DNA of 64,000 nt from an uncultured Bryobacterales bacterium (GCA_964461235.1 CAYWUV010000006.1:11468-75467); one strand, 5' to 3'. Numbered from the stretch's first letter, positions 8,142-48,696 are shown. The notes: generated by a model from the letters alone, not told the origin. Made by a program: numbers and translations.

Positions 8142-8274
8142 CGTCCATCATCGACCTTCGGGTCCCGAGCCCGGTGCGCGACGCTCACGACCGCGACAGC
8201 CTGATCCGGCTAACGCGATCGGGCCCAGTTCGGGCAGTCGAACGGCTACAATCGGACCGAGGCGCACGAGACCC

Positions 8275-9345: not shown

Positions 9346-9473
9346 CAGGCCTGGTTCCGGTGTAGGGCTCCCCTTGGGGAATCCGGACGTTCCGACGTTC
9401 TCGGCCACCCTTGGGGCCGGCCCGGCAGGGGACCGTCGGTGGCTAAACTGGTCCCGAACCAGCCGCTGGAGAA

Positions 9474-10955
9474 ATGCAGATGCAATCGCGTTCGGTCCTC
9501 ACGTCACTCCTCGCCCTTTCGATCGGACTCTTTTCCTGCTCGCCGAGCCAGACTGGGGACCCGGAGGCCGATGGCACGGGGCGGCCGAACTTCATCATCG
9601 TCTTCGCGGACGACCAGGGCTACGGCGACTTGGGCGTGTTCGGGGCTACGGACTTCGAGACACCCCGGATCGACCGGATGGCCCGCGAGGGCATGAAGTT
9701 CACTGACTTCTACGCCCAGCCCGTCTGCGGGCCCTCGCGCACTGCCCTGCTGACGGGATGCTATCCAATCCGGGTTGCGGAATTCGGTAACGAGAAGAAC
9801 AACTTTCCGTACGTGCATGGGGAGGAGATCCTGCTGCCCAAGGTGCTGCAGGATCTCGGCTACGCGACCGGAATGGTCGGAAAGGTGGATATCACCAAGC
9901 GTCGTACCGGTTTCAAGCCCGAACTGAACCCGGTCCGCAGGGGCTTCGACTACTGGTTCGGCGTGGTTGGCGCCAACGACAGCGGGCGGGTGCACTGGGT
10001 CTATCGCAACGAGGACCGGATCCAGGAATCCGCTGGTGTGGACGACTTGACGAGGCGTTATACGGACGAGTCCCTGGCGTTCATTCGCAACAATCGGGAC
10101 CGGCCGTTCTTCCTGTACATCGCCCACACCATGGCGCATGTCGTGCTCGGCGTGACGGAGCCCTTCCGCGACAGGTCGGAGCGCGGCCTTTACGGCGATG
10201 TGATCGAGGAACTGGACGCCAGCACTGGGGAGATTCTGGATTTGCTGGCCGAACTCGGACTCGACCAACGCACGATCGTCGTTTATACCTCCGACAACGG
10301 CCCCTGGAGCAATCATTCCCTGCCGCAGTACACAGCGGCGATCACCGAGCATGCCGGCTCATCCGGACCCCTACGAGGTGCGAAAGGCACGACTTGGGAG
10401 GGCGGCATCCGAGTGCCGACGGTCGTGTGGGGCCCCGGCTTCATCCCGGCCGGGTCGGAATCCAGCGAGGTTGCCTCGACGATGGACCTGCTGCCGACCT
10501 TCATCAACCTGGCCGGCGGCGAACTGCCGGCCGACCGCACGATCGACGGGCGGGACATCTCTCCGCTGATGTTCGGTGAGCCAGGCGCGACCAGCCCTCA
10601 CGAGGCGTTCTATTACTATCGCGAGACGCACCTCGACGCGGTCCGAAGCGGCCCGTGGAAGCTGGTATTCCCGCGCCCGGGGCGGGACGACTCGGAATGG
10701 CTGCTCTCCAAGACCGGTGCCTTCCTCGGAGAACTGCTTGAGCCTGTGACCGAACTTGAGCTGTATGACCTCGAAGCGGACATCGGGGAGCAGAACAACG
10801 TCGCCGCCGAGCATCCGGACGTGGTGGAGCGCTTGGAAGCCCTGGCCGACAGGGCTCGAGGGGAGCTGGGCGACTACGACCGGATTGGCAGCGGGGTCCG
10901 TTTCTTCGAGGAAGGGCCCAAATGGCCTCGTCGCCAGCAGTGGATGCAGCAGTAG
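9474..10955 (+). CDS. sulfatase (arylsulfatase family), lipoprotein-type signal
   Basis: 493 aa. FIIVFADDQGYGDLG and PVCGPSRTALLTGCYP give the C-x-P-x-R formylglycine motif. The N-terminal LFSC is a lipobox. Confidence 0.9.
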   Translation: MQMQSRSVLTSLLALSIGLFSCSPSQTGDPEADGTGRPNFIIVFADDQGYGDLGVFGATDFETPRIDRMAREGMKFTDFYAQPVCGPSRTALLTGCYPIRVAEFGNEKNNFPYVHGEEILLPKVLQDLGYATGMVGKVDITKRRTGFKPELNPVRRGFDYWFGVVGANDSGRVHWVYRNEDRIQESAGVDDLTRRYTDESLAFIRNNRDRPFFLYIAHTMAHVVLGVTEPFRDRSERGLYGDVIEELDASTGEILDLLAELGLDQRTIVVYTSDNGPWSNHSLPQYTAAITEHAGSSGPLRGAKGTTWEGGIRVPTVVWGPGFIPAGSESSEVASTMDLLPTFINLAGGELPADRTIDGRDISPLMFGEPGATSPHEAFYYYRETHLDAVRSGPWKLVFPRPGRDDSEWLLSKTGAFLGELLEPVTELELYDLEADIGEQNNVAAEHPDVVERLEALADRARGELGDYDRIGSGVRFFEEGPKWPRRQQWMQQ

Positions 10956-28782: not shown

Positions 28783-30207
28783 TCAAGCCAGCAGTTTCGT
28801 CACGACGTGTCCCCCGACGTCCGTCAAACGGAAGTCCCGGCCCTGATGGCGGTAGGTCAGAAGCTCGTGATCGAACCCAAGGCAGTGCAGCAGAGTGGCT
28901 TGCAGGTCGTGCACGTGAACTTTGTCTTCGACGGGCTTGAGTCCGATGTCGTCGGTCTTGCCGACAACTCGGCCTCGTGCGATTCCGCCTCCCGCCAGCC
29001 ACATGCTGAAACAGTCCGGGTGGTGGTCCCGACCGGGAGCCTCGTCCTTGCGGTCCACCTGCGCCATCGGAGTTCGCCCAAATTCGCTCGCCCAGATCAC
29101 GAGCGTTGTGTCCAGCAGGCCCCGCTGCTTGAGGTCCTGCACAAGGGCCGCGCTGGGCCGATCGACGGCTGCGCAATTGCCGGCATGCCCCTTGTCGAGT
29201 TCCTTGTGGTCGTCCCAGTCACCGTGCGTGAGCATCACGAAGCGCACGCCCCGCTCCACCATGCGCCTCGCCAGCAGGCAGTTCGTCGCATAGGCATGAG
29301 TCGGTTCCTGGCCGACACCGTAGGATTCCAGCACATGCTTCGGTTCGTCCCCGAAATCGAGCAGCTGGGGGACGGCGATCTGCATCCGGAACGCGAGTTC
29401 GTAGGATGCGATGCGCGCCGCGATCTCCCTGTCACCGGTCCGCGCCAGCCGGTGTTCGTTCAATCGCCGAACCGCGTCAAGGCGAGCTCTCTGCAGTTCG
29501 TTGGTGATTCCTTCGGAGTTCGAGACGTAGAGGATCGGATCCCCGACGGACCGGAACCGAGTTCCCTGGTACGCGGAGGGCAGGAAACCGTTCGACCAGA
29601 TGTTGGAGCCTGCGTTCGGTCCCTTGCCGGATCCCAGGACCACGAAGCCCGGTAGGTCGCGGGACTCGCTTCCCAGCCCATAGGCCACCCAGGAACCGAT
29701 CGACGGCCGTCCGAACTGGGTGACGCCCGTGGAAAGCAGCAGGGCGCCGGGATCATGGTTGAACGCCTCCGAGTTCATTGTGCGGATCATGCAGATGTCG
29801 TCGGCGCAGCTTCCCAAGTGCGGCAGCCAGTCCGAGAATTCGATGCCGCTCTGTCCGTACGGCCGGAACTGCCTGGCGCTCGGCATGATCGTGGCGTTCG
29901 GCTTGATGAAGGCGAGCTTCAGGTCCTTGGTCAGGGAGGGCGGGAGTGCCTGGCCGTCCCACTTCGTGAGACCGGGCTTGGGGTCGAAGAGGTCCAGCTG
30001 GCTAGGAGCTCCCGACTGGTAGATCAGGATGGCGTTCGTCGCCTTGGGCTCGAAATGCGGCTGCTTCACCGTCATCGGGCCGGCCGTCTCCGCTGAGTGG
30101 CCATCGAGGCAGAGCAGGTGTGCGAGTGCCGCCGTTCCGAGGCCGCCGGAGCAACTGGCGAGGAAACGGCGGCGGTCCAGGGTGCGCTGGCAGGCAATCG
30201 GATGCAT
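28783..30207 (-). CDS. DUF1501 domain protein (sulfatase-like fold), Tat signal
   Basis: Likely start MHPIACQRTLDRRRFLASCSGGLGTAALA at 30207, which carries a twin-arginine motif. The C-terminus is FGRTP...GRDHHPDCFSMWLAGGGI...RLTDVGGHVV. Confidence 0.9.
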   Translation of the reverse strand: MHPIACQRTLDRRRFLASCSGGLGTAALAHLLCLDGHSAETAGPMTVKQPHFEPKATNAILIYQSGAPSQLDLFDPKPGLTKWDGQALPPSLTKDLKLAFIKPNATIMPSARQFRPYGQSGIEFSDWLPHLGSCADDICMIRTMNSEAFNHDPGALLLSTGVTQFGRPSIGSWVAYGLGSESRDLPGFVVLGSGKGPNAGSNIWSNGFLPSAYQGTRFRSVGDPILYVSNSEGITNELQRARLDAVRRLNEHRLARTGDREIAARIASYELAFRMQIAVPQLLDFGDEPKHVLESYGVGQEPTHAYATNCLLARRMVERGVRFVMLTHGDWDDHKELDKGHAGNCAAVDRPSAALVQDLKQRGLLDTTLVIWASEFGRTPMAQVDRKDEAPGRDHHPDCFSMWLAGGGIARGRVVGKTDDIGLKPVEDKVHVHDLQATLLHCLGFDHELLTYRHQGRDFRLTDVGGHVVTKLLA

Positions 30208-30212
30208 GAGGC

Positions 30213-32861
30213 TCACTCCCTCGAAAGGAATTCGTCCAGGTTGAGCAACGCGCTGCCCATCACAACCCAGGTCGCGCCGTCGATCGGTGCGATGCCCGGC
30301 AGGTCGAAGCCGAAGAGCTGCTTGACGGATTCCGGCGTACGCTCGAGAATCGCCCGCTGTCGAGCCCACGAGGACTGGAGGGAGTCCATCTCGGCAGGGT
30401 CCGGGTCGCGCGTCAAGCAGAGCCGGAAGACCTGGGTCAGCCGTTCGGACAGATCTCCTTCGAACTCGGTCACGACACGAACCGCCAGGGCCTGCGCGGC
30501 CTCCAGGAAGACTGGATCATTCAGCAGGTTCAAGGCCTGGAGTGGGGTGTTCGTGCGTCCCCGTCGGCATGCGGTTTCGTAAGTGTCGGGCATGTCGAAG
30601 GCACTCAGCAAGGGGTACGGGGACATTCTCTGGTACTGGATGTACATGCCGCGGCGATAGCGGTCCGGACCTTCGCTGGGAACCCAGCCGCCGTCTCCGG
30701 AGCTTCCCATTCGCCGCGCTCCCTCCGGCTGCGGAGGCCGCACGCTGCGGCCGCCGACCCGAGTGTCGAGCAGTCCGCTGACGGCGAGGGTCGAGTCCCT
30801 GATCAGTTCGGCGGGAAGGCGCATGCGGACTTGCCTGGCCAGCAGCACGTTCTCCGGATCCCGGATCTCCAGATCCGTACGGGCGTCGGAGGACTGGCGA
30901 TAGGTGGCCGACGTCACGATACTTTTCACCAGTCGCTTCCAGCTCCAGCCTCCCTCGGCAAACTCGGAGGCGAGCCAGTCCAGCAACTGCGGGTGGGACG
31001 GCTTTTCCCCTTGGGTGCCGAGGTTCTCCGAGGTCAGAGCCAGGCCTCTCCCGAAGAGTTCCTGCCAGATCCGGTTTGCGGCGACTCGCGCTGTCAGGGG
31101 ATTGTCCCTTGAGACCAGCCAGTTGGCAAGGTCGATCCTTGTGACAGTCCCGGCACCTGGGCGGGGGGCGACCCATTCCGGGACTCCGGGATCCACGCGG
31201 ATGCCAGGCGCCTTGTAGCTTCCTCCGAGGTAGACATGGGTCTGCCGAGGTTGTTCTTCGAGGTGTACCGCCTGTGCCTCGCCGAAGGGCGGCAGGGACC
31301 TGTCCAGTTCCTTCAGCTTCTCCGACAGATCCTCGTATCCGAGCCGATCGTACTCCTCCTTCGAAAGGACGCGCTTGTACTCCCTGACAAAGAAGTCAGT
31401 CAGGGCCTTCTCGTGGCGCACGGAACGGCGATCCGGAGGGGTGCGGATGATACGCTCCCCGAGATTTACGTAGGTCCGGAGCTCGTCGAACGTCACGTCC
31501 CACTCGGCCGACTCGCCCGGGTTTTCCGCCGCCCATAGCACCTTCTTCTCCCAAGGTGGCTTGCGTTCGAACACGCCGTGCTCCGTGAGCAATCGGTGTC
31601 GTTGTTGCTGGTAAGCGGGAAGGGCCGCCAGATAGGGCCCGCGTTCGCCCGGCAGCGGCGCGTCGATGTCGACTTCCTCGAGATCGTTGAAGAATGCGAA
31701 CAGCTGGTAGTACTCCTTCTGTGTGAGGGGGTCGTACTTGTGGTCGTGGCACTGGGCACACCCGACGGTCAGTCCCAGCCAGACAGTGCTCACGGTATTC
31801 GTTCGGTTCACGACCTGCTCGAACCGCCATTCCTCCGGGTCCGAGCCGCCTTCCGTGTTCGTCGGGGTGTTGCGGTGGAAGCCTGTCGCAACGTGCTGGC
31901 TTACGGTCCGGCCCGGAAGGATGTCGCCCGCGATCTGCTCCAACGTGAACTGATCGAAAGGCATGTCCTGATCGAAGGCCTCGATGACCCATTGCCGGTA
32001 GCGCCATGCGTGGGGACGGAAGTTATCGCCTCGGAACCCGTCGCTGTCCGCGTATCGCGCGAGGTCGAGCCAGAATCGGGCCCACTTTTCCGCGTAATGA
32101 GGGGAGTCCAGCAAACGGTCGACCAGCCGATCGTACGCTCCCGGGCCCTCGTCCTTGAGGAACGCCTCGAGTTCCAGGAGTGTCGGCGGGAGACCAGTCA
32201 GGTCCAGGCTGAGGCGTCGCAGCTGGGTCTCCCTCGGCGCTGCCGGTGACGGTTCCAGCCCTTCCCGCTCAAGGCGAGCGAGCACGAAACGGTCGATGTC
32301 GTTGGAAGGCCAGGAGCGATCCTTGACCGGGGGGGGCGATGGCCGGGAGAGCGGCTGGAATGACCAGTGAGAGAGTCGCTGGTACTTCGTCTCGGAGTCC
32401 GGGTCTCCGGAATCCGCCCACTCCGCTCCTTGGTCGATCCAAGCCCGCAGCAGTGCAATCTCGGTTCGGGTCAGGCTCTCACCGGCCGGGGGCATGACCT
32501 TGCCGTCGATCAGGCCCGCGACCATCAGGACGAGCTTGCTCTCGGCGCTGTTTCCAGGGAGGATGACGGGACCGCCATAGCTCCCGCGCAGCGCATCGGT
32601 CCCGCGGTCCAGCCGGAGTCCCTGCATTTGCTGCGCCTCGCCGTGGCAGATGTGGCATTTGCCTGCGAGGATCGGCTCGATGTCTTGCCGAAAGTCTACG
32701 ACGCCGCTTGAAGGCGGGGGAAGAGGGGAAGCATCCGGGCCGGTCCCCGGTGCGCCGGACCCTTGCGGGGTGGCGGAGGCCAGCGCCATTACGAACAGGC
32801 ACAGGCTTGCCTTGCGGGTTCCACAGCGCGTTCTCCAACTGCTGAAACGAATGAGGGCCAT
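30213..32861 (-). CDS. PSCyt1/DUF1549/DUF1553 domain protein
   Basis: Likely start MALIRFSSW at 32861 inside ORF 30213..33074. Motifs present are ILAGKCHICHG, LRRLSLDLTGLPPT, CAQCHDHKYDP and RVAANRIWQELFG. The stop lies 5 nt before the DUF1501 start. Confidence 0.9.
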   Translation of the reverse strand: MALIRFSSWRTRCGTRKASLCLFVMALASATPQGSGAPGTGPDASPLPPPSSGVVDFRQDIEPILAGKCHICHGEAQQMQGLRLDRGTDALRGSYGGPVILPGNSAESKLVLMVAGLIDGKVMPPAGESLTRTEIALLRAWIDQGAEWADSGDPDSETKYQRLSHWSFQPLSRPSPPPVKDRSWPSNDIDRFVLARLEREGLEPSPAAPRETQLRRLSLDLTGLPPTLLELEAFLKDEGPGAYDRLVDRLLDSPHYAEKWARFWLDLARYADSDGFRGDNFRPHAWRYRQWVIEAFDQDMPFDQFTLEQIAGDILPGRTVSQHVATGFHRNTPTNTEGGSDPEEWRFEQVVNRTNTVSTVWLGLTVGCAQCHDHKYDPLTQKEYYQLFAFFNDLEEVDIDAPLPGERGPYLAALPAYQQQRHRLLTEHGVFERKPPWEKKVLWAAENPGESAEWDVTFDELRTYVNLGERIIRTPPDRRSVRHEKALTDFFVREYKRVLSKEEYDRLGYEDLSEKLKELDRSLPPFGEAQAVHLEEQPRQTHVYLGGSYKAPGIRVDPGVPEWVAPRPGAGTVTRIDLANWLVSRDNPLTARVAANRIWQELFGRGLALTSENLGTQGEKPSHPQLLDWLASEFAEGGWSWKRLVKSIVTSATYRQSSDARTDLEIRDPENVLLARQVRMRLPAELIRDSTLAVSGLLDTRVGGRSVRPPQPEGARRMGSSGDGGWVPSEGPDRYRRGMYIQYQRMSPYPLLSAFDMPDTYETACRRGRTNTPLQALNLLNDPVFLEAAQALAVRVVTEFEGDLSERLTQVFRLCLTRDPDPAEMDSLQSSWARQRAILERTPESVKQLFGFDLPGIAPIDGATWVVMGSALLNLDEFLSRE

Positions 32862-34167
32862 TGTCCGACGCTGGGCTCTCGAATCCGAGAGCCGCTTCAC
32901 GCACCCGCCCACAATATACCCCTTGGGTCCGGGGTTCGGATACCTCGGTCGACGTGAAGTCGACCCGAGGCTCGCTCGAGCGCTGATCGATGACAGGCCC
33001 ACGCACGAGCGAGAAACTCCGACGCAGGGTCCCAAATGACTGGTGGCGGACGGGGGTAATGGCGCTTGGCACAAGTCAGATTGGTGGCCTGTTCCGAAAT
33101 GCGCTTGCTGAACCTGTTAGGAATGCCGATCTTGGCCCCGTTGGGCACGGACGCGACGGGGCCCATTGGGGGAAGCTGCCAATGCGGAAGACCGCAGCGT
33201 CGATTCCAGTGTTGGTTCGGGTCTCCCTTGCGCGGACTAATAGAGGTCGGAATCCGGTCTATGAGTGGAGCCGGGTTCGTGACTGGCTTTGCGGGCAGCA
33301 GCTGGTTGTGAGGCAATTCAAGGACATCGTCCCAGACGTGGTCATCGCCCACGTGACCGGCAATGCCACCGGACTCGCGGTCCGCCCCCGAACCGCCATG
33401 AACCCGGGATTCCCAGTTCGCACATTCGATCTGTCTCCCGGCGTGAATGAGTGCGCTACCAGGTTCTGTTCGGTGCGGGCCTTGAATCCGGTGCAGTCGC
33501 CCGCGGTCCTACATAGTGCCTGCGACAAAACCCCCGGATTTTGAGCCGGAAGCCATGGGAATACTATATCATGTCCTCATTGTGGATCGACCATACAACA
33601 TGTAGTATTCGTGCTTGACTGACTGCTGAGTTAGGATCTGCGAATGTTTGCACGAATCCGTCCGAACCGGTTGGATTCCCGGCAAACCCCGGTCTGCCAA
33701 CCAAATATTCGCTCCGGGGATCTGGACATAACTTTCCTGCGACCAACAAGATGCGAGTTCTGTCGCAACCACTACATAGCGTTCCAGCGGTCGCATGAGC
33801 ATCGCTCAACGAGCACTGACACGTCCTCTCGGGCAGTAGGGCTACGTGTGAGCATCTGCTGCGGGGAAGGCGCAGGTAATCGGCGAGTTCCGGCGAGCGA
33901 TCCGCAGACCATGGAGCAGGAGCGCCAGATGCACCACCTAGAATCCGGCGGAACGTCGCACCGTTTCCTCGTGGTCCAAGCTGCCGTCCAAACCGAATTG
34001 AGGGTCAGACCCCATCGCCTCAAGGCGATTCACCACCGACCTCGTCGCCAGCAAGCCTTCGACACTTGAAGCCAGCCGGCGTGCACTTTGGCAATACCCC
34101 GCAGGGTCGGGACCAAGGACTGAAGGCATCCATCTGCACATCGCGACGAGTCGAGGCGAATTGTGGC

Positions 34168-35922
34168 TCAGTCAGGGGAAACCCTATGGGCGGGCATCGA
34201 AGCTACCACGACCTGGTCGAGTTGCGTATCCCAGAAGTAATAGATTCGAAGGCAATGCCTAGGGTCGTGAGACGTGCCTTGCCGAAGGTGCCATTCAACC
34301 TTCCTCGGCTCTCCCTGCCACTTCACTGTGAAGCTGTCGGAGCCGCATCGCTCATTACTGAGGCCTTCGGCTCCGGGAACCGGTCCCCGCAGGTCTTCCC
34401 CTCGACCGTTTAGCCGAGCATCCCTGTAGCTCGTTGCAAGCCACTGTAGGCCCCGTGTAGCCGTCTCCACATCCTCGTACTGCGCCCGAGGGAGGTCTCG
34501 CCTGACCGGGGTTATCAGCATCAATCGTCCACTCAGTTCGGTGTCGCACCATCCGATGACCCGATCCCAGGAGTCCGGGAGAGGCCTTGTGGCCGCTAGT
34601 GAGGCTTTTAACCCTGCGATCCGCTCGTCTCGTTCAGCCAAGGAGTGCTGAAGTTGCCGGTTCTTGCTTACGAGCTCCTTGTTCCGTTCCCGGGCAGTTT
34701 TGAGCTTCCGCGTGAGACCTTTTCGATCAGCTTCTATCTTTGAGAGCTTCCGGTTCAGGTCGACGAACTCTGGGTCCCCGTGGGTCCCTTTCTTGGGGCG
34801 AGTGTACTCGCGTGAGGCACGCCCGATCTGGCTTCGAATTGGTTCGAGGAATCGGGTCCAATGGCGTGCCACCCAATCTCCCACTCGGTCCCGTACTGGA
34901 GCTGTCGTTCGCGTTCCTTTGTCGCTGCCTGTCGAATCGGCATTGCCAACGGTTGAGGCCGGCGTGCCTCCCAACTCCCCGGACCGTTTCTTGAGTCTGG
35001 CTGCCTTATGCTCCAACGCCCCGTATGGCAGTCGCCCTCCGTTCTTCCGGTATGAATTCGCACTCTCTCGAGCGACGAGGCGCAAGAGCGACAGCCAAGA
35101 TTGCTCGACCTCATCCGAACTCGGATCCCGCCCCGAGCAATGTAATCTGTGGCGGCCGGGATCCGTGTCTTTCTCTAGGCCCGGCAGGTAGACCCGCACA
35201 GCGCCGTTAAAGACTGCCAGCTTCCTGCCGACACCCTGCGTAAAGAGCCTGCTTTGCGATGAGGCCATAACGGATACGTGCGCCAGACCGTTCGCCGCTT
35301 TCGCGAAGGACCAGGGATCAAAGCGAGTGGACGACGCACGGTCAGCGCCTTTGTTCATGCTGACGATGACGACGGGCCTGTTGCGCTCTCGGTCCAGAAG
35401 CTGCGTGACTAGGTTTCGCGTCTGTTCCTCGGATCGGATCAGTGAAACCTCAGATCTCGAATCGGTGATTGTCGAGTAAAGATTGCAGAAGGCCTCAACA
35501 GCTGCAGCCAAGCCGGCCTCGCGGCCTGAGTGCGGGAATTTGTGGGAGGGGATCTCGGCCAGCAGACGGAAGCCTACTCGGTCTACAGTGCCGTGGCGGC
35601 AGGTCACCATCGCTTCTGTGATCAGGCATGTTCCTTCGACCTGCTCAATGGGATCGTCGAGCCAGCACGCCCATATGTCGTCATCACCTTCCTTGACGGA
35701 CGCGGAGAGAAAGGTACGGCTACCATGCCTCGCTATGCATTCGTCGGAATCTCCCGTGCTCTCCGGAAGAGTGGTTCCGAACCGCTTCTCGAACCAAGCG
35801 AGCACACGGGAGCGCACGGATTCGGCGGTTTCTCTCCCGCCGCCCGCTTCGATGAAACCAAGTACGATGAACGGCTCGTCCCTGATATTTGCAGCTGCGT
35901 CACTCGCGTTCGGAAGACCCAC
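34168..35922 (-). CDS. large orphan protein (584 aa) of unknown function: N-terminal globular region, central coiled coil, distinct C-terminal domain
   Basis: A single uninterrupted ORF. Third-position GC is clearly lower than in neighbouring housekeeping genes (rough manual count). The coiled-coil stretch is LNRKLSKIEADRKGLTRKLKTARERNKELVSKNRQLQHSLAERDERIAGLK. The C-terminus is VEWHLRQGTSHDPRHCLRIYYFWDTQLDQVVVASMPAH. I recognise no family. Confidence 0.7.
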   Translation of the reverse strand: MGLPNASDAAANIRDEPFIVLGFIEAGGGRETAESVRSRVLAWFEKRFGTTLPESTGDSDECIARHGSRTFLSASVKEGDDDIWACWLDDPIEQVEGTCLITEAMVTCRHGTVDRVGFRLLAEIPSHKFPHSGREAGLAAAVEAFCNLYSTITDSRSEVSLIRSEEQTRNLVTQLLDRERNRPVVIVSMNKGADRASSTRFDPWSFAKAANGLAHVSVMASSQSRLFTQGVGRKLAVFNGAVRVYLPGLEKDTDPGRHRLHCSGRDPSSDEVEQSWLSLLRLVARESANSYRKNGGRLPYGALEHKAARLKKRSGELGGTPASTVGNADSTGSDKGTRTTAPVRDRVGDWVARHWTRFLEPIRSQIGRASREYTRPKKGTHGDPEFVDLNRKLSKIEADRKGLTRKLKTARERNKELVSKNRQLQHSLAERDERIAGLKASLAATRPLPDSWDRVIGWCDTELSGRLMLITPVRRDLPRAQYEDVETATRGLQWLATSYRDARLNGRGEDLRGPVPGAEGLSNERCGSDSFTVKWQGEPRKVEWHLRQGTSHDPRHCLRIYYFWDTQLDQVVVASMPAHRVSPD

Positions 35923-38933: not shown

Positions 38934-39413
38934 TCAATCCTCGGGTTCGTGGAAATTGGCAACCATGTACTCGTGGTACGGACCGCGGAGAAATCGAAGG
39001 AAAACCTCGTTGACGAGCTTCAGGCCCTTGCTGACCAGGTAGTCCCAGTCCCGGTCGAGGCTCTGCGCGCGAACTGTCACGTTTCCTCGTCGGTTCGTGC
39101 TGCGAAGTGCGATGCGATCCGGATCGATCCGGCGGTGGCCGGGTAGCCCGGGCTGCTCGAGCCCTCTCAGGAACCGCTTGAAGTCCTTGTAGAGCGCTGA
39201 GTGGAGGCCCACGCTGGGTAGCAGATCCCGGAACTCGAGCGTGCCGCTCTTCGGATCGAACACGGCCCGAACCGGCCGCTCCTTGAGCCAGACTAGGGAG
39301 CAATCCAGGCGGCCGCGTTTGCGGGCAGAAGTGAACGAGCGGAAGATACCTCGGTCGGCGCGCTCGCGCAGGAATCCCTCTACGGCATCGGCCGGAGCGC
39401 ACCCGTCTGCCAT
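38934..39413 (-). CDS. hypothetical protein (159 aa), translationally coupled to the upstream TPP enzyme
   Basis: Start [18 protein letters not shown] at 39413. The sequence TGATG places the upstream stop and this ATG on a shared A. No signal peptide is present and I recognise no family. Confidence 0.6.
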   Translation of the reverse strand: MADGCAPADAVEGFLRERADRGIFRSFTSARKRGRLDCSLVWLKERPVRAVFDPKSGTLEFRDLLPSVGLHSALYKDFKRFLRGLEQPGLPGHRRIDPDRIALRSTNRRGNVTVRAQSLDRDWDYLVSKGLKLVNEVFLRFLRGPYHEYMVANFHEPED

Positions 39414-41362
39414 CAGTGGTAGTACGCCATGCACCCGGGCTCGACTTTCTGCAGGAGACCCGGCGGGTAGTCGCGGGCGCTCCAGAACTCCTTGATCGCT
39501 TGGCAGTTGACGACCGTTGAGACCCCCTCGGATGCTGCCAGCTCGTAGCTCCGCCGCAGGGCGGGTGCGAAGTCGCTGGCTTGGGTGACGTATTCGCCAC
39601 GCGCTCCGAGCGCCTCGCCGATCTTCTCGTAGCGGAGGTTCTCCTGGAACAAATACATGTGCTGCGCCTTGGCCGTTCCGCTCCGTCCTCCGCTTTCGCC
39701 GCCCCGCCAAACGCCCCAAGCGTTGTTGTTGTAGACGACGAGGACCGCCGGAATTCGGTACTTACTCAGCGTCTCCACCTCCATCCCCGAGTAGGCGAAG
39801 CCCGCGTCGCCCGTTACTGCGAGGACCGGGGATCCCTTGTAGGGCGCCTGAGGTCCGGTGCCTTGCTGGACCGAAGCGCCCACGCCCACGGTGTATCCGA
39901 TGTCCGGTCCGATGGCTCCGTACTGATAGGCGCCGTTACAGATCTGGCCGGGCCGGAAGGCGCGCAGGCGCCGGCGCGTGTAGCGCGCGATTCCGTAGCC
40001 GCCCGACACAACGGTGGTTTGCTCCCGCGGGATGCTGCTGTTGTAGAGCAGGTCCGAGATTCCCTTCGCGATCACCGCCGGATGGACACACTCGGCGTGC
40101 TCGCTGTATTGCAGGCCGAGCTTGTAATGCTCGTCGTTCTCGGCTTCGAAGGCGGCCCGGGCCGCCGCTAGCTCGTCTCGCCAGGCCGGGCGCTTTCTGC
40201 TGGGAAGCTCCTCGGCCAGCGCCTCCAGGGCCGCCTTCTCGCAGCTGACGATCCCGAGATCGATCGGGAGATTGCGGCCGATATCGGCCGCTTCCGGGTC
40301 AATCCGCAGGTAGGTGGCGTCCGGGTCAAAGGAGTACTCGCCGATATTCGGCATGCAGTACTGGCCGACCAGAGCGACGAGGTCAGCGCTGAGCAGGGCG
40401 TCCGGCGCCGTGCTGGCGGACAGAGGGTGATCGTCGCTGAAGTGCCCTCGGCTCGGCCCCGACTCGACCACGGCAATGTCCCCTTTTTCAGCGACAGCCC
40501 TGAGGGCGTCCCAGGCCTTGCTGTAGAACACCCCGGCGCTGGCAACGATGATCGGCCGCTCCGCCTTGTCGATCAAGGCGACCGCCTTCGCGATGTCCTT
40601 TGGCGAGGGATGCGGCCTCGAGTCGGTCCGGTACTTCGACTTGTCATGGAAGTACCTCAGATCCTCGGAGCTCTCGAACCGGTTTCGCGCGACCTCACCC
40701 GGGAAGTCGAGATGGACCGGCCTCGGGATGCCCGTCTTCAGCTGGCGAAAGGCATAGCCCGCGTACTCGTGGACGCGCTCCGGGTTGATCAGGCGCTTCC
40801 CGTACTTCTTCATGCCCTCGGTCGTGGGCTGCTGGTACACCCGCTGGATGCCGTGCTCGGTGTCTTCCAGCCCCAGCGTCATGTTGCTCGCAAGCACCAG
40901 CAGGGGCGACCGCGCCGCGTTCGCGCACGCGACGTTCATGATCATGTTGGTGAATCCGGGCCCCTCCGTACCGGACGCGGCGGCCACCTCGCCGGTCACG
41001 CGGGCGAAGCCGTCCGCGGCGGCGCACATCATGCCTTCGGTGCGCCCGCCGTAGCACGGGATTCCCTCGGAGGCGATGGCGTTGATGACGACGTAGTTGC
41101 CCGGGGCGCAGAAGAGGGCTGCGAGGCCTTCCTCCTTGCAGGCCTTGGCGAACACCTGGGCGCCCGTCATCGGGAAGACGGCGGGGTTGGCATCCTCCGA
41201 GAGGCTTGCAGGCACTTCCTTCGGGATCTGGATATTCGGGTCGCGACGCTCTGTGGTGGAGGCTTGCGTCGCCGCGCCGGCCGCGACCGCAGCGGCAGCG
41301 CCCTTCGCCACGAAATTCCGCCTGGACACCGGGGCTACCGACCCGTCCTGCTTGCTTGGCAT
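39413..41362 (-). CDS. thiamine-pyrophosphate-dependent enzyme (acetolactate synthase/POX superfamily) with an N-terminal twin-arginine signal
   Basis: 649 aa. The N-terminal [23 protein letters not shown] matches S-R-R-x-F-[LV]-K followed by a hydrophobic region. The TPP motif [34 protein letters not shown] follows the GDG-x24-27-NN pattern. Confidence 0.85.
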
Positions 41363-41397
41363 GGTTGATTCCCTTCCGGCTGCGCTTGTCTACGCCC

Positions 41398-41910
41398 CTA
41401 TCTCTGGCTCTTGACGGGCCGCAATTCCGCCGGCCCGATGCTGCGCACGTAGTGCACCAGTTCCCAGACTTGGTCGTCCGTCAACTGCTTGCCGAATGGC
41501 GGCATGTCGTGGCCTGCCCCGTCGCGGACCGAGACGAAGAGCTCGCCATCGGTACGGCCGTAACGCCATTGATTCGGGTCCCGCAGGCTGGGTGCCTCGA
41601 AGTCGGGGTTCGCCTGCGCCCGGCCGTCCGCTCCATGGCAGTACTGGCACAGGCGCAGGTAGGTCTTGCGCCCTTCCTTGGCGACGGCGGCCGAATACGC
41701 CACCGGATTTCGGAGCTTGCTGGCCTCCTCCGCAGACGGTCGCTCGGCTCCGAGCAGGGCTTGGGGCATGCACGCGAGCGCGAATAGCGTGCAAGATCCG
41801 GCCAGCCACCTTGGCGTGCTCGTGCGAGCCAATGGTTCGGGCCGGTTCGGAACGGGCACGCCAATGCCCCGCATCCGATAGCTTAGTCTCGGCTGGCCGC
41901 CGCTCCGCAT
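41398..41910 (-). CDS. class I c-type cytochrome (mono-haem)
   Basis: CQYCH is a haem-binding site and GHDMPPFG is a distal Met region. A signal-like WLAGSCTLFALACMPQALLGA is present. The start may be MRGIGV at 41874. Confidence 0.8.
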   Translation of the reverse strand: MRSGGQPRLSYRMRGIGVPVPNRPEPLARTSTPRWLAGSCTLFALACMPQALLGAERPSAEEASKLRNPVAYSAAVAKEGRKTYLRLCQYCHGADGRAQANPDFEAPSLRDPNQWRYGRTDGELFVSVRDGAGHDMPPFGKQLTDDQVWELVHYVRSIGPAELRPVKSQR

Positions 41911-42106
41911 CCGGCATCGACAGCATACCGGAGGTACGGGATCGCTGCCAAGGCGGCCGCATGCCGGCCCCAGACGAAAAACGCCGGCCCGCTTGCGCGG
42001 GCCGGCGTAGGAAAAAGGTGCCGGAGGGGTGGTTTCAGGGGTCTTGGTTGAGGATTATAGTATGCGTTGGTGGGGTTGACCCCCCCGGCAGTCATTACGA
42101 TACAGG

Positions 42107-44386: not shown

Positions 44387-45154
44387 GTGCGGGCGTCCAG
44401 CCCGGTAGTGTCCATGAATTCAAGCTTTAGCGGGCAATCTGTCCCCGTCGACAAGCGCTTTGTCCTCTGCTATGCACCGGCAGCCGCGCACGAGGACTGG
44501 GACAAGTCCTATTACGCCGCTGCCCGTGCGCGCGAAGCGCTGGCAGCGATCCGCGACGATCTCGAATCGTTCTTCTGGCGCTTCGTCGTGACCCGACGGG
44601 TCGTCCCCGGCGCCCTGTCCCTTTTGGCTGCGATCGCGGTTCTCGCGTGGTGGGCCCTTTCCACCTTCGGACGGTGGACCGAGCTGGGATTCGCTGTGCG
44701 GTACCTCCCTCCGTTCGTCGCCTTGGTGTTCCTCGTGATCGCGAGCTCGCGCCTCGCGGCGTTCCGCAAGCGTCTCTCGATGTGGAGAGGTTCCTGCAAG
44801 GCGGTAGTCGCCGACGAGCTGGCCGCGATTCGCGAAATCGTCGAGACTCTCCCGGAAGACCCGGACGCGGAAGAGGCCGCCGAGGTCGTGCGACGGGAAT
44901 GCCCGGGCCCGATTTCCGAAATCGCCTTTTACGGCCACAACTTCAAGGCGTTCACGTATATGGATTTCGTGCTCAGCCCGAAGCTGCGGCACCCTGCCGA
45001 GAAGGCCGACCTGCCGCAGAAGCACAGTCTGTACCGCGACGCCTACTACGTGGGGGACGTGGTCTACGACAACTGGCGGATGTTCCAGAAGGACCGCCGG
45101 GCGCACGTGGACCCAAGGTTCGTGGGCAGTGGCGGCCGCCGGGGCGTGATCTAG
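44387..45154 (+). CDS. hypothetical membrane protein (two predicted TM helices)
   Basis: 255-aa ORF with hydrophobic stretches VVPGALSLLAAIAVLAWWAL and LPPFVALVFLVIASSRLAAF. I recognise no family. An alternative start is at 44414. Confidence 0.5.
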   Translation: MRASSPVVSMNSSFSGQSVPVDKRFVLCYAPAAAHEDWDKSYYAAARAREALAAIRDDLESFFWRFVVTRRVVPGALSLLAAIAVLAWWALSTFGRWTELGFAVRYLPPFVALVFLVIASSRLAAFRKRLSMWRGSCKAVVADELAAIREIVETLPEDPDAEEAAEVVRRECPGPISEIAFYGHNFKAFTYMDFVLSPKLRHPAEKADLPQKHSLYRDAYYVGDVVYDNWRMFQKDRRAHVDPRFVGSGGRRGVI

Positions 45155-46326
45155 CTTCCTGACTCCCGGGACCTGCGCAGGACCACGAGGGGGTGTTCCC
45201 GGTCCGTCAGGGGGAAGTCCTTGACCGCGTGGCCCAGCTGCGACGCATACATGCCCTGGGTCATCTCAATGGTCCAGCGCCCTGCACGCTCGCTGCAAGC
45301 GGGCTCCCGGTTCTGCTCGATGGAATCGAGCAGGTCTTCCACCATCAGGGCGTTCGCCGTCAGGTAGCGGTCGTCGCCGAAACTGCGGTGCTCAGGTTCG
45401 AGCGGCTCCCACTCATTGTCGTTGTCGGGTATCCACGCGGGGCTGCGCAGGATGAAGCCTTCCGAGTCCGCCCCGTAGATCTGATTGGGCAGGAAAATCC
45501 GCCCCTTGGTGCCGTAGACATGGGTGCCGAAGCGCCACGGGTGCGTCACGCCGGACTTCTTCGTGCCGAAGAAGCCATGCCGGCCGCTCCCGAAGGAGAA
45601 CATCGCACTCATCTGACGTCCGGCCACCGGCCCGATGGGCTCCCTGGGCTTGGTCAGGTGGTCGAACTCGAGTTCTTGGCCGTCCGTAGTGACATGCGCG
45701 AAGACCCACTGCGGATCGCCCAGGACCGCCCGCATCATGTCGAAAATGTGCGATCCCAGTACGACTAGGTCCTCCCCGCCCGCCCGGAAGTCTTCCTTGC
45801 CGCGGCCGCGAACCTCGTGGATTTCGCCGATCTCGCCCGCCGAGATCAGTGCGAGAGCCTTCAAGGTGAAGGGGGATCGGCGCATTTGATGCGCGATCTG
45901 GACCCTAACCCCGGCCTCGCGAATCGCCTTGACCATCCGGTCAGCGTCGGTGAGTGTTCCCGCGAACGGCTTCTCCAAGTACATATGACAGCCGGCCCGG
46001 GCGGCAGCCGTGACCATCTCCAGCCGCTGGTCGGTGTGCCGGGGGCAGATGCTGACGATGTCCGGCTTCTCCCTGTCCAGCAACTCGCGGTAGTCGGCGT
46101 ACGCCTTCCCCGCGCCAGTACGCTCCTGTGCTCTGGCCCGGCCCTCGGAGTCGGGGTCGGCCACTGCGACGACCTGGGTCTGCGGGAATGCAGGCCACAC
46201 GTCGCCGATCCCATGGCCGTAGTTTCCGCGGCCTGTATGGCCAATCACGCCCACCCGGTAGCGGGGCGCGGCGCGGAGGGGAACGGCCGCCGCGCCGGAG
46301 GCGGCCAGGAAGTGCCTGCGGAGCAT
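45151..46326 (-). CDS. Gfo/Idh/MocA-family oxidoreductase with Tat signal
   Basis: 391 aa. MLRRHFLAASGAAAVPLRAA is a twin-arginine signal. YRVGVIGHTGRGNYGH is a Rossmann N-terminus. Confidence 0.85.
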   Translation of the reverse strand: MLRRHFLAASGAAAVPLRAAPRYRVGVIGHTGRGNYGHGIGDVWPAFPQTQVVAVADPDSEGRARAQERTGAGKAYADYRELLDREKPDIVSICPRHTDQRLEMVTAAARAGCHMYLEKPFAGTLTDADRMVKAIREAGVRVQIAHQMRRSPFTLKALALISAGEIGEIHEVRGRGKEDFRAGGEDLVVLGSHIFDMMRAVLGDPQWVFAHVTTDGQELEFDHLTKPREPIGPVAGRQMSAMFSFGSGRHGFFGTKKSGVTHPWRFGTHVYGTKGRIFLPNQIYGADSEGFILRSPAWIPDNDNEWEPLEPEHRSFGDDRYLTANALMVEDLLDSIEQNREPACSERAGRWTIEMTQGMYASQLGHAVKDFPLTDREHPLVVLRRSRESGS

Positions 46327-46395: not shown

Positions 46396-46839
46396 CTATT
46401 CTTCGGGGTGGACCACCGCCTTGCCGGCGGCCTTCCAGGCCTCGATGCCCCCTGACTGGATCTCGCCCTCGTAGCCGTTGTCGCGAAGGATGGCCGCCGC
46501 ACGGGAGGCCCTGCCGCCGCGCCGTCAATAGGCCACGATCGGCTTGTCCGTCGGGACTTCCGCCAGTCGCGCCTCCAGCTCGTCGATGGGAATGTGCAAG
46601 TAGCCCTCGATCGCCCCGTCCGTGACGAGTTCCTCGTGAGTCCGCACGTCCAGAAGAGTGATCTCCTCGCCGGCTGCCAGTCGTGCCGACACCTGCTCCA
46701 CGTCCAGCTCCGTCGCTTCGACCGGCGGACTCTCCGCTGGCTCCGTTGCGGCAGCATCCTCGGGTTCCGGCGCGCCTTGGCAGGCCACCACCGTCAAGGC
46801 GAATGCCGCTAGAATTGCTGCCCGGATTACGCGTCTCAT
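46396..46839 (-). CDS. rhodanese-domain lipoprotein with an in-frame TGA (46525..46527) at the catalytic Cys position: selenocysteine candidate or fresh pseudogene
   Basis: ORF 46525..46839 ends ...DKPIVAY-TGA. The same frame continues RRGGRASRAAAILRDNGYEGEIQSGGIEAWKAAGKAVVHPEE-TAG (stop at 46396..46398). This is the rest of a rhodanese domain. The N-terminal lipobox is LTVVAC. Confidence 0.7.
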
Positions 46840-46852
46840 GGAACGCTCCTTT

Positions 46853-47755
46853 CTAGGCTCCCCAGCCCCGTGTCGAGGCCTCGGGGATCTTTCGGATCAG
46901 GTCCGCTAGCTCGTACCTGTTCTCGGCTCCGATCGTGAAGCAGTCGATGCAGTCCAGCGCCATCGCGTGCTGCAACGCTTCGCCGACGCGGTTGCGCAGG
47001 ACTCCTTCGCCGAGGATCTTCATGCCGATCACGCCCTTGCCGGCGGCCTTGATCTTGCACAACTCCTCGACCACGGTCGCCGGGTCGGCGTCCATCCTCG
47101 CACCGACCGCGTTGACACGTGCCAAGTCCACGTCAATGAACTCCTGCTTGTGCACCTGCTGGAGTGCCGGAAGGGAGTGGCACGAGATACCCCGGGACCG
47201 AACGAGTCCCTTCTGCTTGTATTCGTTGATCACATCCATCGCGCCAGCGCGCTGGACGGGCCAGTCCTGCTCCTGGACCGCATGCAGCAGGAGCAAGTCG
47301 ATGTAGTCCGTCCCCAGCTCCCTCCGGAAGCGCTCGATATCGTCGCGCATGCCCTTGGCCGTCTTCGAGGTGGACTTGGTCATGATGACCACCTTTTCGC
47401 GGGGGATGTGCTGGAGCGCAGTCTTGAGGTGCGGATGGCTGCCGTAGCCGTCCGCGGTGTCCCAGAAGGTGACGCCGTTGTCGAAGCCGAATTGGTAAAG
47501 GTCGACGATACCGCGAACTCCGAGCTTGCGCGTCTGGTTGGACGCCCCCCGGAATCCGCTCGTCCCTGTTCCCATGGCGAGCCTCGACGGACGCAGGCCG
47601 TGCGGTCCAAGAGAGACCGTGTCCTGGGCATACCGTCTCGTCGGGTTCTCGGAATAACCCGTCGTAGCCCCGAACAGATGCTGCTGGACAGCGGCTACCG
47701 GGGCTCCGGCGGCCAGAGCATGACGAATGAAGTCCCGTCGCTTCATGGTGGACAT
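46853..47755 (-). CDS. aldo/keto reductase with Tat signal
   Basis: 300 aa. MSTMKRRDFIRHALAAGAPVAA is a twin-arginine signal. The AKR pattern is FWDTADGYG...IDLLLLH. Confidence 0.85.
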   Translation of the reverse strand: MSTMKRRDFIRHALAAGAPVAAVQQHLFGATTGYSENPTRRYAQDTVSLGPHGLRPSRLAMGTGTSGFRGASNQTRKLGVRGIVDLYQFGFDNGVTFWDTADGYGSHPHLKTALQHIPREKVVIMTKSTSKTAKGMRDDIERFRRELGTDYIDLLLLHAVQEQDWPVQRAGAMDVINEYKQKGLVRSRGISCHSLPALQQVHKQEFIDVDLARVNAVGARMDADPATVVEELCKIKAAGKGVIGMKILGEGVLRNRVGEALQHAMALDCIDCFTIGAENRYELADLIRKIPEASTRGWGA

Positions 47756-47907: not shown

Positions 47908-48696
47908 CTAGTCGCTGGGGGTGATTCGCAGGTTGCGGTAGTGGGCTACTGTCGAGCCCTCCAGCCAAAGGGCCACTTGCCCGGTCGCGTCGGCACCCGA
48001 CTTCACGTCATTCACGATCAGCGTCGGCTGCTCGGCCCCGTTGACATGGATGCGGGCCTTCTCGCCGTCTACCACGATCTTGATGGGGATCCACTCGCCC
48101 GGGACGATGTCCGCGTACGTTTCGTACTTGCTCGGCGTCTCGCTACGGAAGCGGTACCAGGTCCACTCCGGGTGCGAAATGTACTGCACCGTATGATTGC
48201 GCCGCTCCTGGTCGTCGGCCCGGCCATTGGTGGGCCGGAGATAGAAGCAGTCGTAGGTCTTGCGATCATCCTGAATCCTCCAGGCGATGCCCACGAAACC
48301 GCGCGCACCGCCTTGGGCTCCCGGTGCCGGCTGCCCGGACACTTCCACCTCAATCGTGCCATTGCCGAATTCCACATCCTCGACGATCGCGAGATGGTTC
48401 GTGCGGAGGCTCTCGAACGTGCCCGGGCCTCTCGGCTGCTCGCCCCGAGCCCGCATGGCTGCCAACATCTCCTGGCGTTTGGCCGCGGCCGCTTTCAGAA
48501 CCTCCGGGTCGCCACTGACCTTTAGTCCCTTCTTTCCGTCCAGAGTGTCGGCAACAGCTTCCACGTTGACAAGTTCGAGCCCTTCCGGCGAGTCCAGGGC
48601 TAGGTCGGCCGCGAGGCCTGGAAAGGCGACCAGGGCCAAGGCCAGTGCCGCCAGCGCTAGGTAGATACGGTGGTTGTTCGTCACGATGGTCTCCAA
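47908..48696 (-). CDS. secreted LamG/concanavalin-A-like (DUF1080-related) jelly-roll protein
   Basis: 262 aa with a signal peptide. The pattern FGNGTIEVEV...GFVGIAWRIQD...YDCFYLRP...IHVNG...VALWLEGSTVAHYRNLRI is present. The family assignment is approximate. Confidence 0.55.
   Translation of the reverse strand: METIVTNNHRIYLALAALALALVAFPGLAADLALDSPEGLELVNVEAVADTLDGKKGLKVSGDPEVLKAAAAKRQEMLAAMRARGEQPRGPGTFESLRTNHLAIVEDVEFGNGTIEVEVSGQPAPGAQGGARGFVGIAWRIQDDRKTYDCFYLRPTNGRADDQERRNHTVQYISHPEWTWYRFRSETPSKYETYADIVPGEWIPIKIVVDGEKARIHVNGAEQPTLIVNDVKSGADATGQVALWLEGSTVAHYRNLRITPSD

Follow-up and report, generated by a model that had tools for sequence, protein, structure and literature searches.

Enzymes that depend on thiamine diphosphate (ThDP, also TPP) and belong to the superfamily of acetolactate synthase (ALS), pyruvate oxidase (POX) and oxalyl-CoA decarboxylase (Oxc) are textbook cytoplasmic enzymes. 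We analysed a locus in a 64,000-nucleotide stretch of DNA from an uncultured Bryobacterales bacterium (GCA_964461235.1, CAYWUV010000006.1:11468-75467; hereafter the window), in which genes for a cytochrome c, for a ThDP-dependent enzyme with a predicted twin-arginine translocation (Tat) signal and for a 159-aa protein follow one another at positions 38,934 to 41,910. An initial sequence-only reading had proposed a periplasmic module oxidising 2-oxo acids or aldehydes; as a whole it was partly supported here, in that export and co-conservation hold and the suggested flavin does not. The closest described enzymes are Oxc, 2-hydroxyacyl-CoA lyase (HACL) and benzaldehyde lyase (BAL), which ranked first in hidden Markov model (HMM) scores (169-190 bits), in PDB sequence matches (E 3e-42) and in fold comparison (Foldseek, E 3e-28), and which share with the window enzyme the three-domain layout, the catalytic Glu, a GDx...NN motif and the lack of any sign of a flavin. 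However, identity to this clade is only ~22-27%, and the window enzyme is set apart by its Tat signal, by its conserved N-terminal extension and C-terminal tail, and by the small protein and the dedicated cytochrome c that accompany it. Oxc and HACL are cytoplasmic and act on CoA thioesters, which are not available in the periplasm.

POX and PoxB are the model for oxidation of a ThDP enamine that feeds the respiratory chain, yielding a carboxylic acid and CO2. PoxB is cytoplasmic, lies peripherally on the inner membrane face, contains FAD and reduces quinone, whereas the window enzyme shows no evidence of a flavin, is predicted to be exported by Tat and has a soluble or anchored c-type cytochrome as its presumed acceptor. 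The FAD-dependent glucose, fructose and gluconate dehydrogenases are three-subunit periplasmic flavoprotein-cytochrome c systems, to which NicA2-CycN is comparable; they possess a Tat-exported catalytic subunit of ~60-65 kDa, an organic cofactor and a dedicated cytochrome c, and complexes of the FAD-glucose dehydrogenase (FAD-GDH) type also possess a small subunit of ~18 kDa. Here, in contrast, ThDP would stand in for FAD as the catalytic cofactor, the large and not the small subunit bears the Tat signal, the cytochrome is mono-haem and no sequence relationship exists. Glucose-fructose oxidoreductase of Zymomonas is exported by Tat owing to a tightly bound non-metal organic cofactor, but this cofactor is NADP and the enzyme has neither a cytochrome partner nor an accessory protein. 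Flavin-free one-electron oxidation of ThDP intermediates via a ThDP radical occurs in oxalate oxidoreductase (OOR) and pyruvate:ferredoxin oxidoreductase (PFOR), which differ in their unrelated fold, [4Fe-4S] relay, cytoplasmic location and oxygen sensitivity. ThDP enzymes, Tat signals and cytochromes c are each known singly; their combination and location, together with an orphan partner family, have not been described before. No characterised periplasmic ThDP enzyme was found in the full-text literature searched, in agreement with the sequence-only reading, which knew of no such example. The scytonemin enzyme ScyA, the one ThDP enzyme that this literature treats together with periplasmic steps, has a predicted location in the cytoplasm (PMC2726228).

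The three open reading frames (ORFs) are co-directional, lie on the minus strand and have the coordinates first read from the sequence. The features of the module, with the basis for each, are:

41398..41910, minus strand: cytochrome c, mono-haem class I (ORF and Pfam; homologue in 78/80 loci)
39413..41362, minus strand: ThDP-dependent enzyme precursor, 649 aa, with TPP_enzyme_N/M/C domains (Pfam)
41258..41362, minus strand: predicted Tat signal peptide of the ThDP enzyme, residues 1 to ~35 (motif, Tat model and conservation)
41171..41257, minus strand: subfamily-specific N-terminal extension of the mature ThDP enzyme (alignment)
39416..39505, minus strand: conserved C-terminal tail of the ThDP enzyme (alignment)
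38934..39413, minus strand: 159-aa accessory protein (ORF; its ATG overlaps the stop of the ThDP gene)

The window proteins were searched by tblastn against 80 orthologous loci from species-representative genomes. The gene trio recurs in 69-79 of the 80 loci, and the co-occurrence test proposed in the sequence-only reading was passed in two phyla, with the cytochrome c in 78 loci (CxxCH and a hydrophobic leader in all 78) and the small protein in 74, missing only at actual or probable contig ends and in L035, a complete genome locus. Unsupervised ORF clustering identified the trio as the only families common to Bryobacterales and the other lineages, with the exception of overlapping-frame ORFs of the trio genes and of a cyclase family present in 20 Bryobacterales loci and 3 others; across the 80 loci, this clustering yielded no second dehydrogenase family co-conserved with the cytochrome. 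The lineages that carry the module are Bryobacterales, Thermoanaerobaculia, Holophagales, "Multivorans", Terriglobales-like genomes and marine Gammaproteobacteria of the OM182/Pseudohongiellaceae type. The gap between the cytochrome c and ThDP genes is -3 to 57 nt in most loci, the two genes overlapping in Thermoanaerobaculia, and the stop of the ThDP gene overlaps the start of the small gene throughout Bryobacterales. In the most divergent loci, the full trio is kept at 54% identity (L087, between ubiE-ubiJ-ubiB and hisIE-tatABC, 5541-10813), and the ThDP-small pair is kept at 42% (L088), where the contig is too short for a cytochrome c to be seen and the downstream ORF of 153 aa matches the small-protein profile with a probability of 99.6%. 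This distribution indicates that the three genes are inherited as one unit, far beyond chance.

In the window itself, 35 nt separate the cytochrome c stop from the ThDP ATG, a Shine-Dalgarno-like GGAAGGG ends a few bases 5' of that ATG, and the 159-aa ORF takes the A of its ATG from the TGA stop of the ThDP gene (39413), forming the TGATG overlap already noted from the sequence. A sequence scan found no terminator-like sites between the three module genes, and the arrangement indicates that they form one operon.

Insertions of 1-4.5 kb of extra DNA between trio genes were seen in a few Bryobacterales genomes (L021, 7950-10494; L022, 1509-6001; L007, L009 and L026), where the ThDP gene is set apart in this way from the small gene or from that of the cytochrome c; insertions are thus tolerated there. 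The trio of L087 lies ~1.4 kb upstream of tatA-tatB-tatC.

c-Type cytochromes mature and function outside the cytoplasm. The product of the first gene matched Pfam Cytochrome_CBB3 (E 5.5e-14), with PF13442 and PF00034 (Cytochrom_C) above cut-off, and it has the attributes of a class I c-type cytochrome: a single CxxCH haem site (CQYCH, residues 88-92, 41635-41649), a distal Met (Met136 in HDMPPF, 41503-41505) and an export leader. The leader, RWLAGSCTLFALACMPQALLGA, is hydrophobic, occupies residues 34-55 (41746-41811) ahead of the conserved mature start ERP and reads as Sec-type. The ORF, the Pfam matches and the leader together bear out the mono-haem cytochrome with a signal peptide recognised earlier. 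A public gene caller begins this protein at Met48 (41767-41769; also in locus L085, 6722-7093), giving 123 aa, which is probably wrong because it would delete the hydrophobic export leader carried by all 78 orthologues. By this reasoning, the true start must lie upstream, at Met1 (41910), Met13 (41874) or a nearby TTG, and not at 41769, and the short call is likely to be a systematic mis-annotation of this small cytochrome.

The second gene, correctly placed 35 nt downstream in the sequence-only reading, encodes a 649-aa protein in which all three Pfam domains PF02776, PF00205 and PF02775 (TPP_enzyme_N, M and C) exceed their gathering scores. The GDG...NN motif reported for it was right in its second half, which reads NNN, and wrong in its first, which reads GDA and not GDG; the ThDP motif is GDA-X24-NNN at residues 518-547 (39722-39811). 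The catalytic Glu is E109 (41036-41038). This residue, the GDA...NNN motif (G518-D519-A520...N545-N547) and most residues of the active-site region are invariant across the family alignments, and the catalytic Glu and the motif align with their Oxc equivalents; with Glu109 and GDA-X24-NNN invariant, the enzyme should be catalytically competent. The N-terminus carries SRRNFVAK (41303-41326), then an h-region rich in Ala and a cleavage-type site reading A-T-Q-A, so that the RR motif, moderately hydrophobic h-region and A-x-A site of a Tat substrate are all present. It scored 19.6 bits against TIGR01409 TAT_signal_seq (cut-off 16.7), and the gammaproteobacterial orthologue L038 scored 27.8 bits with both TIGR01409 and PF10518 (PF10518 cut-off 22.7). 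An SRRxF-type motif with a hydrophobic stretch is present in 80/80 orthologous loci, of which a stricter motif search confirmed 79, the motif of L062 being read directly from its N-terminus. The enzyme is thus most likely a Tat-exported periplasmic protein, as predicted from these signals. Between the signal and the Pyr domain lies the extension motif I-x-I-P-x-E-x-P ... P-A-x-F-P-M, which cytoplasmic homologues do not have, and the C-terminal tail (CQAIKEFW...YPPG...) has an aromatic end that reads YYH here, YYK in Gammaproteobacteria and YYW in P0179, the most distant member.

We propose that the operon builds a periplasmic, cytochrome-c-linked ThDP dehydrogenase that oxidises carbonyl compounds and reduces its own cytochrome c, a reading for which the case stands evenly poised. 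The ThDP sites of the superfamily lie at the dimer interface, and Tat exports folded, cofactor-loaded oligomers. The enzyme would fold, dimerise and bind ThDP-Mg2+ in the cytoplasm before folded export by Tat, cofactor loading being assigned to the cytoplasm because the site is at the dimer interface and the periplasm has no cofactor-loading route. The 159-aa protein would be an obligatory partner that assists or escorts the enzyme and, as a chaperone, would hold the precursor until it is assembled. A periplasmic carbonyl substrate (a 2-oxo acid, an aldehyde, or an alpha-hydroxyketone or 1,2-dicarbonyl) would be attacked, the dedicated cytochrome c would oxidise the ThDP-bound carbanion/enamine in two one-electron steps, the acyl-ThDP would be hydrolysed to a carboxylic acid, and the reduced cytochrome would pass its electrons to an aerobic respiratory chain and its terminal oxidase. 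ThDP enamines are strong reductants that one-electron acceptors oxidise readily: FAD does so in POX/PoxB, Fe-S clusters do so in PFOR and OOR, and ferricyanide does so with many ThDP enzymes. The role of the cytochrome as direct electron acceptor is suggested by co-conservation and by the tight or overlapping spacing of the genes.

Regarding the substrate, C1/C2 carbonyls such as glyoxylate, oxalate and formaldehyde would fit an Oxc/HACL/BAL ancestry, and alpha-hydroxyketones or 1,2-dicarbonyls such as 3-keto-sugars would fit the neighbouring genes of the GFO/IDH/MocA and 3-keto-disaccharide hydrolase families in two lineages, although these sugar-enzyme families are very abundant in such genomes and the neighbour link may be chance. 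Several points weigh against the proposed dehydrogenase. The genomic context names no substrate, and the ThDP enzyme shows no evident flavin or one-electron relay of another known kind. To our knowledge, every characterised oxidising member of the superfamily (POX, PoxB) uses FAD, so that direct transfer from ThDP to haem would be without precedent in the family. Pyrroloquinoline quinone (PQQ) dehydrogenases adjoin the module in marine Gammaproteobacteria, and the cytochrome could serve them instead. The small protein matches known folds weakly (E 0.017, TM 0.46/0.53, none at E <= 0.001), and the AF2 monomer model of the ThDP enzyme, built from a 22-sequence alignment, is poor (pLDDT 63): its middle and PP domains are good, its Pyr domain and loops poor. 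This model served only to confirm the nearest structural family and not for inference about the cofactor site.

An exported branch of the superfamily would put ThDP chemistry into the periplasm, and ThDP would join the cofactors that call for export by Tat. A flavin-independent route from the ThDP carbanion to haem would exist if the cytochrome accepts the electrons directly. The module occurs commonly in Acidobacteriota associated with sponges and in pelagic Gammaproteobacteria (OM182, Pseudohongiellaceae), and for this reason it may bear on how small carbonyl compounds are turned over in the sea.

TorD/DmsD, NapD and HyaE are small signal-less proteins whose genes share an operon with, and often overlap, that of a Tat substrate containing a cofactor; the third gene product resembles them in these respects. 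Its N-terminus is not hydrophobic and no orthologue has a signal peptide, as the sequence-only reading had stated for the window protein. It gave no Pfam, NCBIfam or PDB sequence matches, and a profile search of 5.8 billion proteins recovered only 160 related clusters, of which those listed measure 147-182 residues, are 'hypothetical' where named and include no fusions. The ThDP gene was directly upstream of the small-protein gene in every genomic context inspected. The proposed module would give a role to this widespread family of 'hypothetical' proteins (~160 sequence clusters), which is found only in the company of the enzyme. YADRG-x-F-x-x-F (39333-39359) and P-x-HRR (HRRID, 39123-39137) are invariant across the family, which contains no Cys or His cluster suggestive of a redox cofactor and no cofactor-binding motif. 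The AlphaFold model is confident (pLDDT 89, pTM 0.85) and has an alpha-beta4-alpha-beta2-alpha2 topology, which differs from those of TorD (all-helical) and NapD (ferredoxin-like) and weakly resembles the alpha-beta-beta-beta-alpha-beta-beta-alpha fold of type III secretion class I chaperones; the best PDB fold matches were ExsC, SycT, InvB and SpcS of that class and the MotA double-wing domain. The known Tat maturation families (TorD/DmsD, NapD) gave no sequence match and were not among the fold matches. A small regulatory subunit of ALS was also considered and was rejected, as no ACT/ALS_ss_C match was obtained and the topology is not ACT-like.

On this evidence, a cytoplasmic export or maturation chaperone is slightly favoured over a signal-less third subunit that would leave the cytoplasm by hitch-hiking on the ThDP enzyme and would act as a docking, stabilising or electron-path element. 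The hitch-hiking subunit, which we consider somewhat doubtful, fits either a redox or a non-redox enzyme. Translational coupling suggests 1:1 synthesis, length and motifs (YADRGxF, PxHRR) are strictly conserved in all ~160 family members, and the size and three-part architecture match complexes of the FAD-GDH/fructose dehydrogenase type. However, a subunit would have to be reconciled with the absent cofactor-binding motif, with secretion chaperones as the nearest fold and with divergence much faster than that of the enzyme (31-35% vs ~66% identity between phyla). Odd cysteine counts in 39/65 small-protein sequences are a further weak hint pointing away from an oxidising periplasm; cysteine parity and the pI of the small protein, both considered as clues to its location, carry little weight. 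A fuller version of the proposed dehydrogenase, in which the enzyme is flavin-free, passes single electrons from the ThDP enamine or radical directly to a c-type haem in the periplasm and is served by a new Tat-substrate-specific chaperone family with a secretion-chaperone-like fold, appears on balance unlikely; if true, it would represent a new class of respiratory dehydrogenase with which marine and sponge-associated bacteria burn small carbonyls outside the cytoplasm.

The exported enzyme could instead be a non-redox periplasmic lyase, decarboxylase or carboligase like BAL, HACL or Oxc, with the cytochrome c accepting electrons from another periplasmic dehydrogenase of the same pathway, PQQ- or NAD(P)-bound, which makes or consumes the carbonyl compound. 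The closest homologues are indeed all non-redox and flavin-free. Divergent soluble PQQ dehydrogenases flank the module in OM182/Pseudohongiellaceae and other loci (L047, 3152-5176 and 9358-11346; L081, 3627-5432), the L081 gene ending 11 nt before the cytochrome c gene, and genes for a Tat-signal GFO/IDH/MocA protein, an aldo-keto reductase and a 3-keto-disaccharide hydrolase occur close by, both in the window and in some further lineages. However, Acidobacteriota keep the pairing of cytochrome and ThDP enzyme though no PQQ dehydrogenase adjoins it, the cytochrome stop overlaps the ThDP start in Thermoanaerobaculia, and the clustering described above yielded no second dehydrogenase family co-conserved across lineages. 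The oxidative model is preferred because the ThDP enzyme is the cytochrome's only co-conserved redox partner, and we regard a non-redox enzyme as quite unlikely.

The flanking PQQ dehydrogenases were compared with XoxF/MxaF-type models and missed the family cut-offs (253 vs 480 bits, and lower), so that a methanol dehydrogenase followed by formaldehyde oxidation gives no justified inference of substrate. Beside other gammaproteobacterial modules lie a molybdenum subunit of the xanthine dehydrogenase family (L068, 8419-10833) and, after the small protein of L081, a 643-aa flavin-type oxidoreductase.

Placement of the ThDP enzyme by HMM, which the sequence-only reading had recommended, succeeded in part: the Oxc/HACL/BAL group was nearest, and no curated family (ALS, POX, glyoxylate carboligase (GCL), IolD or sulfoacetaldehyde acetyltransferase (Xsc)) was reached. 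None of the curated NCBIfam models came near its cut-off, all being missed by a factor of at least 3. The best was PRK05858 (190 bits, cut-off 587), and the other scores were 169 (cut-off 557) and 159 (739) for the oxalyl-CoA decarboxylase models NF006721 and TIGR03254, 148 (600) for the HACL model NF058623, 149 (538) for the acetolactate synthase model TIGR00118, and 151, 137 and 103 for Xsc, GCL and IolD. The boundary of the subfamily was determined by an exhaustive search of 1.84 billion cluster representatives, in which full-length representatives scored 820, 711 and 513 bits and the next full-length proteins, at 31-33% identity and without the N-terminal 60 residues, scored 214 bits. These scores mark the enzyme as its own sharply bounded subfamily beside the Oxc/HACL/BAL clade and within none of the curated families. 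In the alignment to E. coli Oxc, I212, A276 and Y335 stand at Oxc R158, K220 and R280, the ADP-phosphate ligands of that enzyme, and I-Q-R stands where Oxc has its active-site Tyr-Glu pair; with these positions replaced, the window enzyme is not an Oxc and is not evidently a relative that binds nucleotides.

The same comparisons bear on a periplasmic flavoenzyme of the PoxB/POX type, in which FAD would split the electron pair of the ThDP enamine and the cytochrome c would accept the electrons. The three-domain architecture is common to POX/PoxB, strand 1 of the middle domain leads into a turn made up partly of glycine (A-S-A-G / G-Q-G), and the chemistry would be orthodox. However, the pyruvate oxidase model NF006377 gave only 99.5 bits (cut-off 742) and ranked under more than 20 other families. 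The closest PDB sequences are oxalyl-CoA decarboxylases, 2-hydroxyacyl-CoA lyases/synthases (the synthases abbreviated HACS), BbmA and benzaldehyde lyase; ranks 1-25 are all flavin-free and the FAD-binding glyoxylate carboligase appears from rank 26 only. The top 50 fold matches of the model comprise the same Oxc/HACL/HACS/BAL set, again all flavin-free, and POX is absent both from these 50 and from the 32 best PDB sequence matches. GGG and RFDDR, the ALS-type FAD-site motifs, are absent and replaced by A-S-A-G and G-Q-Y-C-M-P. The suggestion that the enzyme is 'possibly flavo-' is not supported, because its nearest relatives by HMM, PDB sequence and fold are all flavin-free, and we consider a POX-like flavoenzyme improbable.

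The sequence-only reading had named a start downstream of the RR motif as the case that would overturn it. Cytoplasmic homologues align only from query residue 65-67, so the alternative start would be Met65. When codons 1-64 were compared with Bryobacterales orthologues, difference rates were 0.285, 0.231 and 0.556 at codon positions 1, 2 and 3, indicating a translated sequence under somewhat relaxed constraint, as expected of a signal peptide. A non-functional RR stretch ahead of an ordinary cytoplasmic enzyme starting at Met65 thus agrees with where cytoplasmic homologues begin, but is highly improbable given 64 upstream codons kept as protein with third-position changes in excess in 80 loci of two phyla, the ribosome-binding-site-like sequence before the upstream ATG and curated Tat models exceeding their cut-offs. 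As far as sequence can tell, the absence of a signal peptide is excluded, and the twin-arginine signal first recognised by eye is upheld.

The most distant member of the subfamily (P0179 in L088, 175-2142; 42% identity) carries Asp at the position of the Glu that activates ThDP (GGRHDGAM) and, as called, a hydrophobic N-terminus (MAFPEEIFLKKAAVGAG...) without an RR pair; either its start is mis-called or this branch is exported by a different route.

Two sequence elements lie on the upstream side of the module:

41922..41951, minus strand: sigma-70-like promoter match TTGGCA-18-TATGCT (consensus match only)
41981..42008, minus strand: strong terminator-like hairpin with a 12-bp stem and 11 G-C pairs, followed by a T run (sequence)

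The promoter-like match adjoins the cytochrome c ORF, and the hairpin is read as the end of the upstream transcription unit and hence as the 5' boundary of the module. The window has a G+C content of ~64%, and its protein and DNA matches assign it to Bryobacterales, Acidobacteriota. Apart from the trio, the neighbouring genes change with lineage:

Bryobacterales: cyclase, amidohydrolase, epoxide hydrolase, Tat-signal GFO/IDH/MocA
Thermoanaerobaculia: penicillin amidase, TonB-dependent receptor, 3-keto-disaccharide hydrolase
Gammaproteobacteria: PQQ dehydrogenases, Mo-hydroxylase

The amidohydrolase, cyclase, epoxide hydrolase and GFO protein were rejected as universal parts of the module, being conserved only within Bryobacterales. 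In the window, a GFO/IDH/MocA oxidoreductase (45151-46326, minus strand) has the Tat-like N-terminus MLRRHFLAASGAAA and an aldo-keto reductase has the Tat-like N-terminus KRRDFIRHALAAGA, both of which score under the Tat-model cut-offs. They belong to a run of apparently periplasmic redox and sugar enzymes (45151-46326, 46525-46839, 46853-47755 and 47908-48696, all minus strand), which also includes a 3-keto-disaccharide hydrolase (DUF1080) and a leader-bearing rhodanese. This composition suggests a periplasmic pathway of the 3-keto-sugar type beside the module.

Further away, the window holds a sulfatase (9474-10955) and two cytochrome-like giants of the PSCyt1/PSCyt2(DUF1549)/PSD1(DUF1553) type, one paired with a DUF1501 protein (5505-8141, plus strand; 28783-30369 and 30213-33074, minus strand); the PSCyt1/PSCyt2/PSD1 families are typical of Planctomycetes-like genomes, and the window here is acidobacterial. 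A 584-aa ORF (34168-35922, minus strand) has no Pfam match and a coiled-coil-like middle region, and lies in the lowest-GC stretch of the window (0.60 at 34-36 kb vs ~0.64-0.67 elsewhere), a composition that may mark foreign or mobile DNA.

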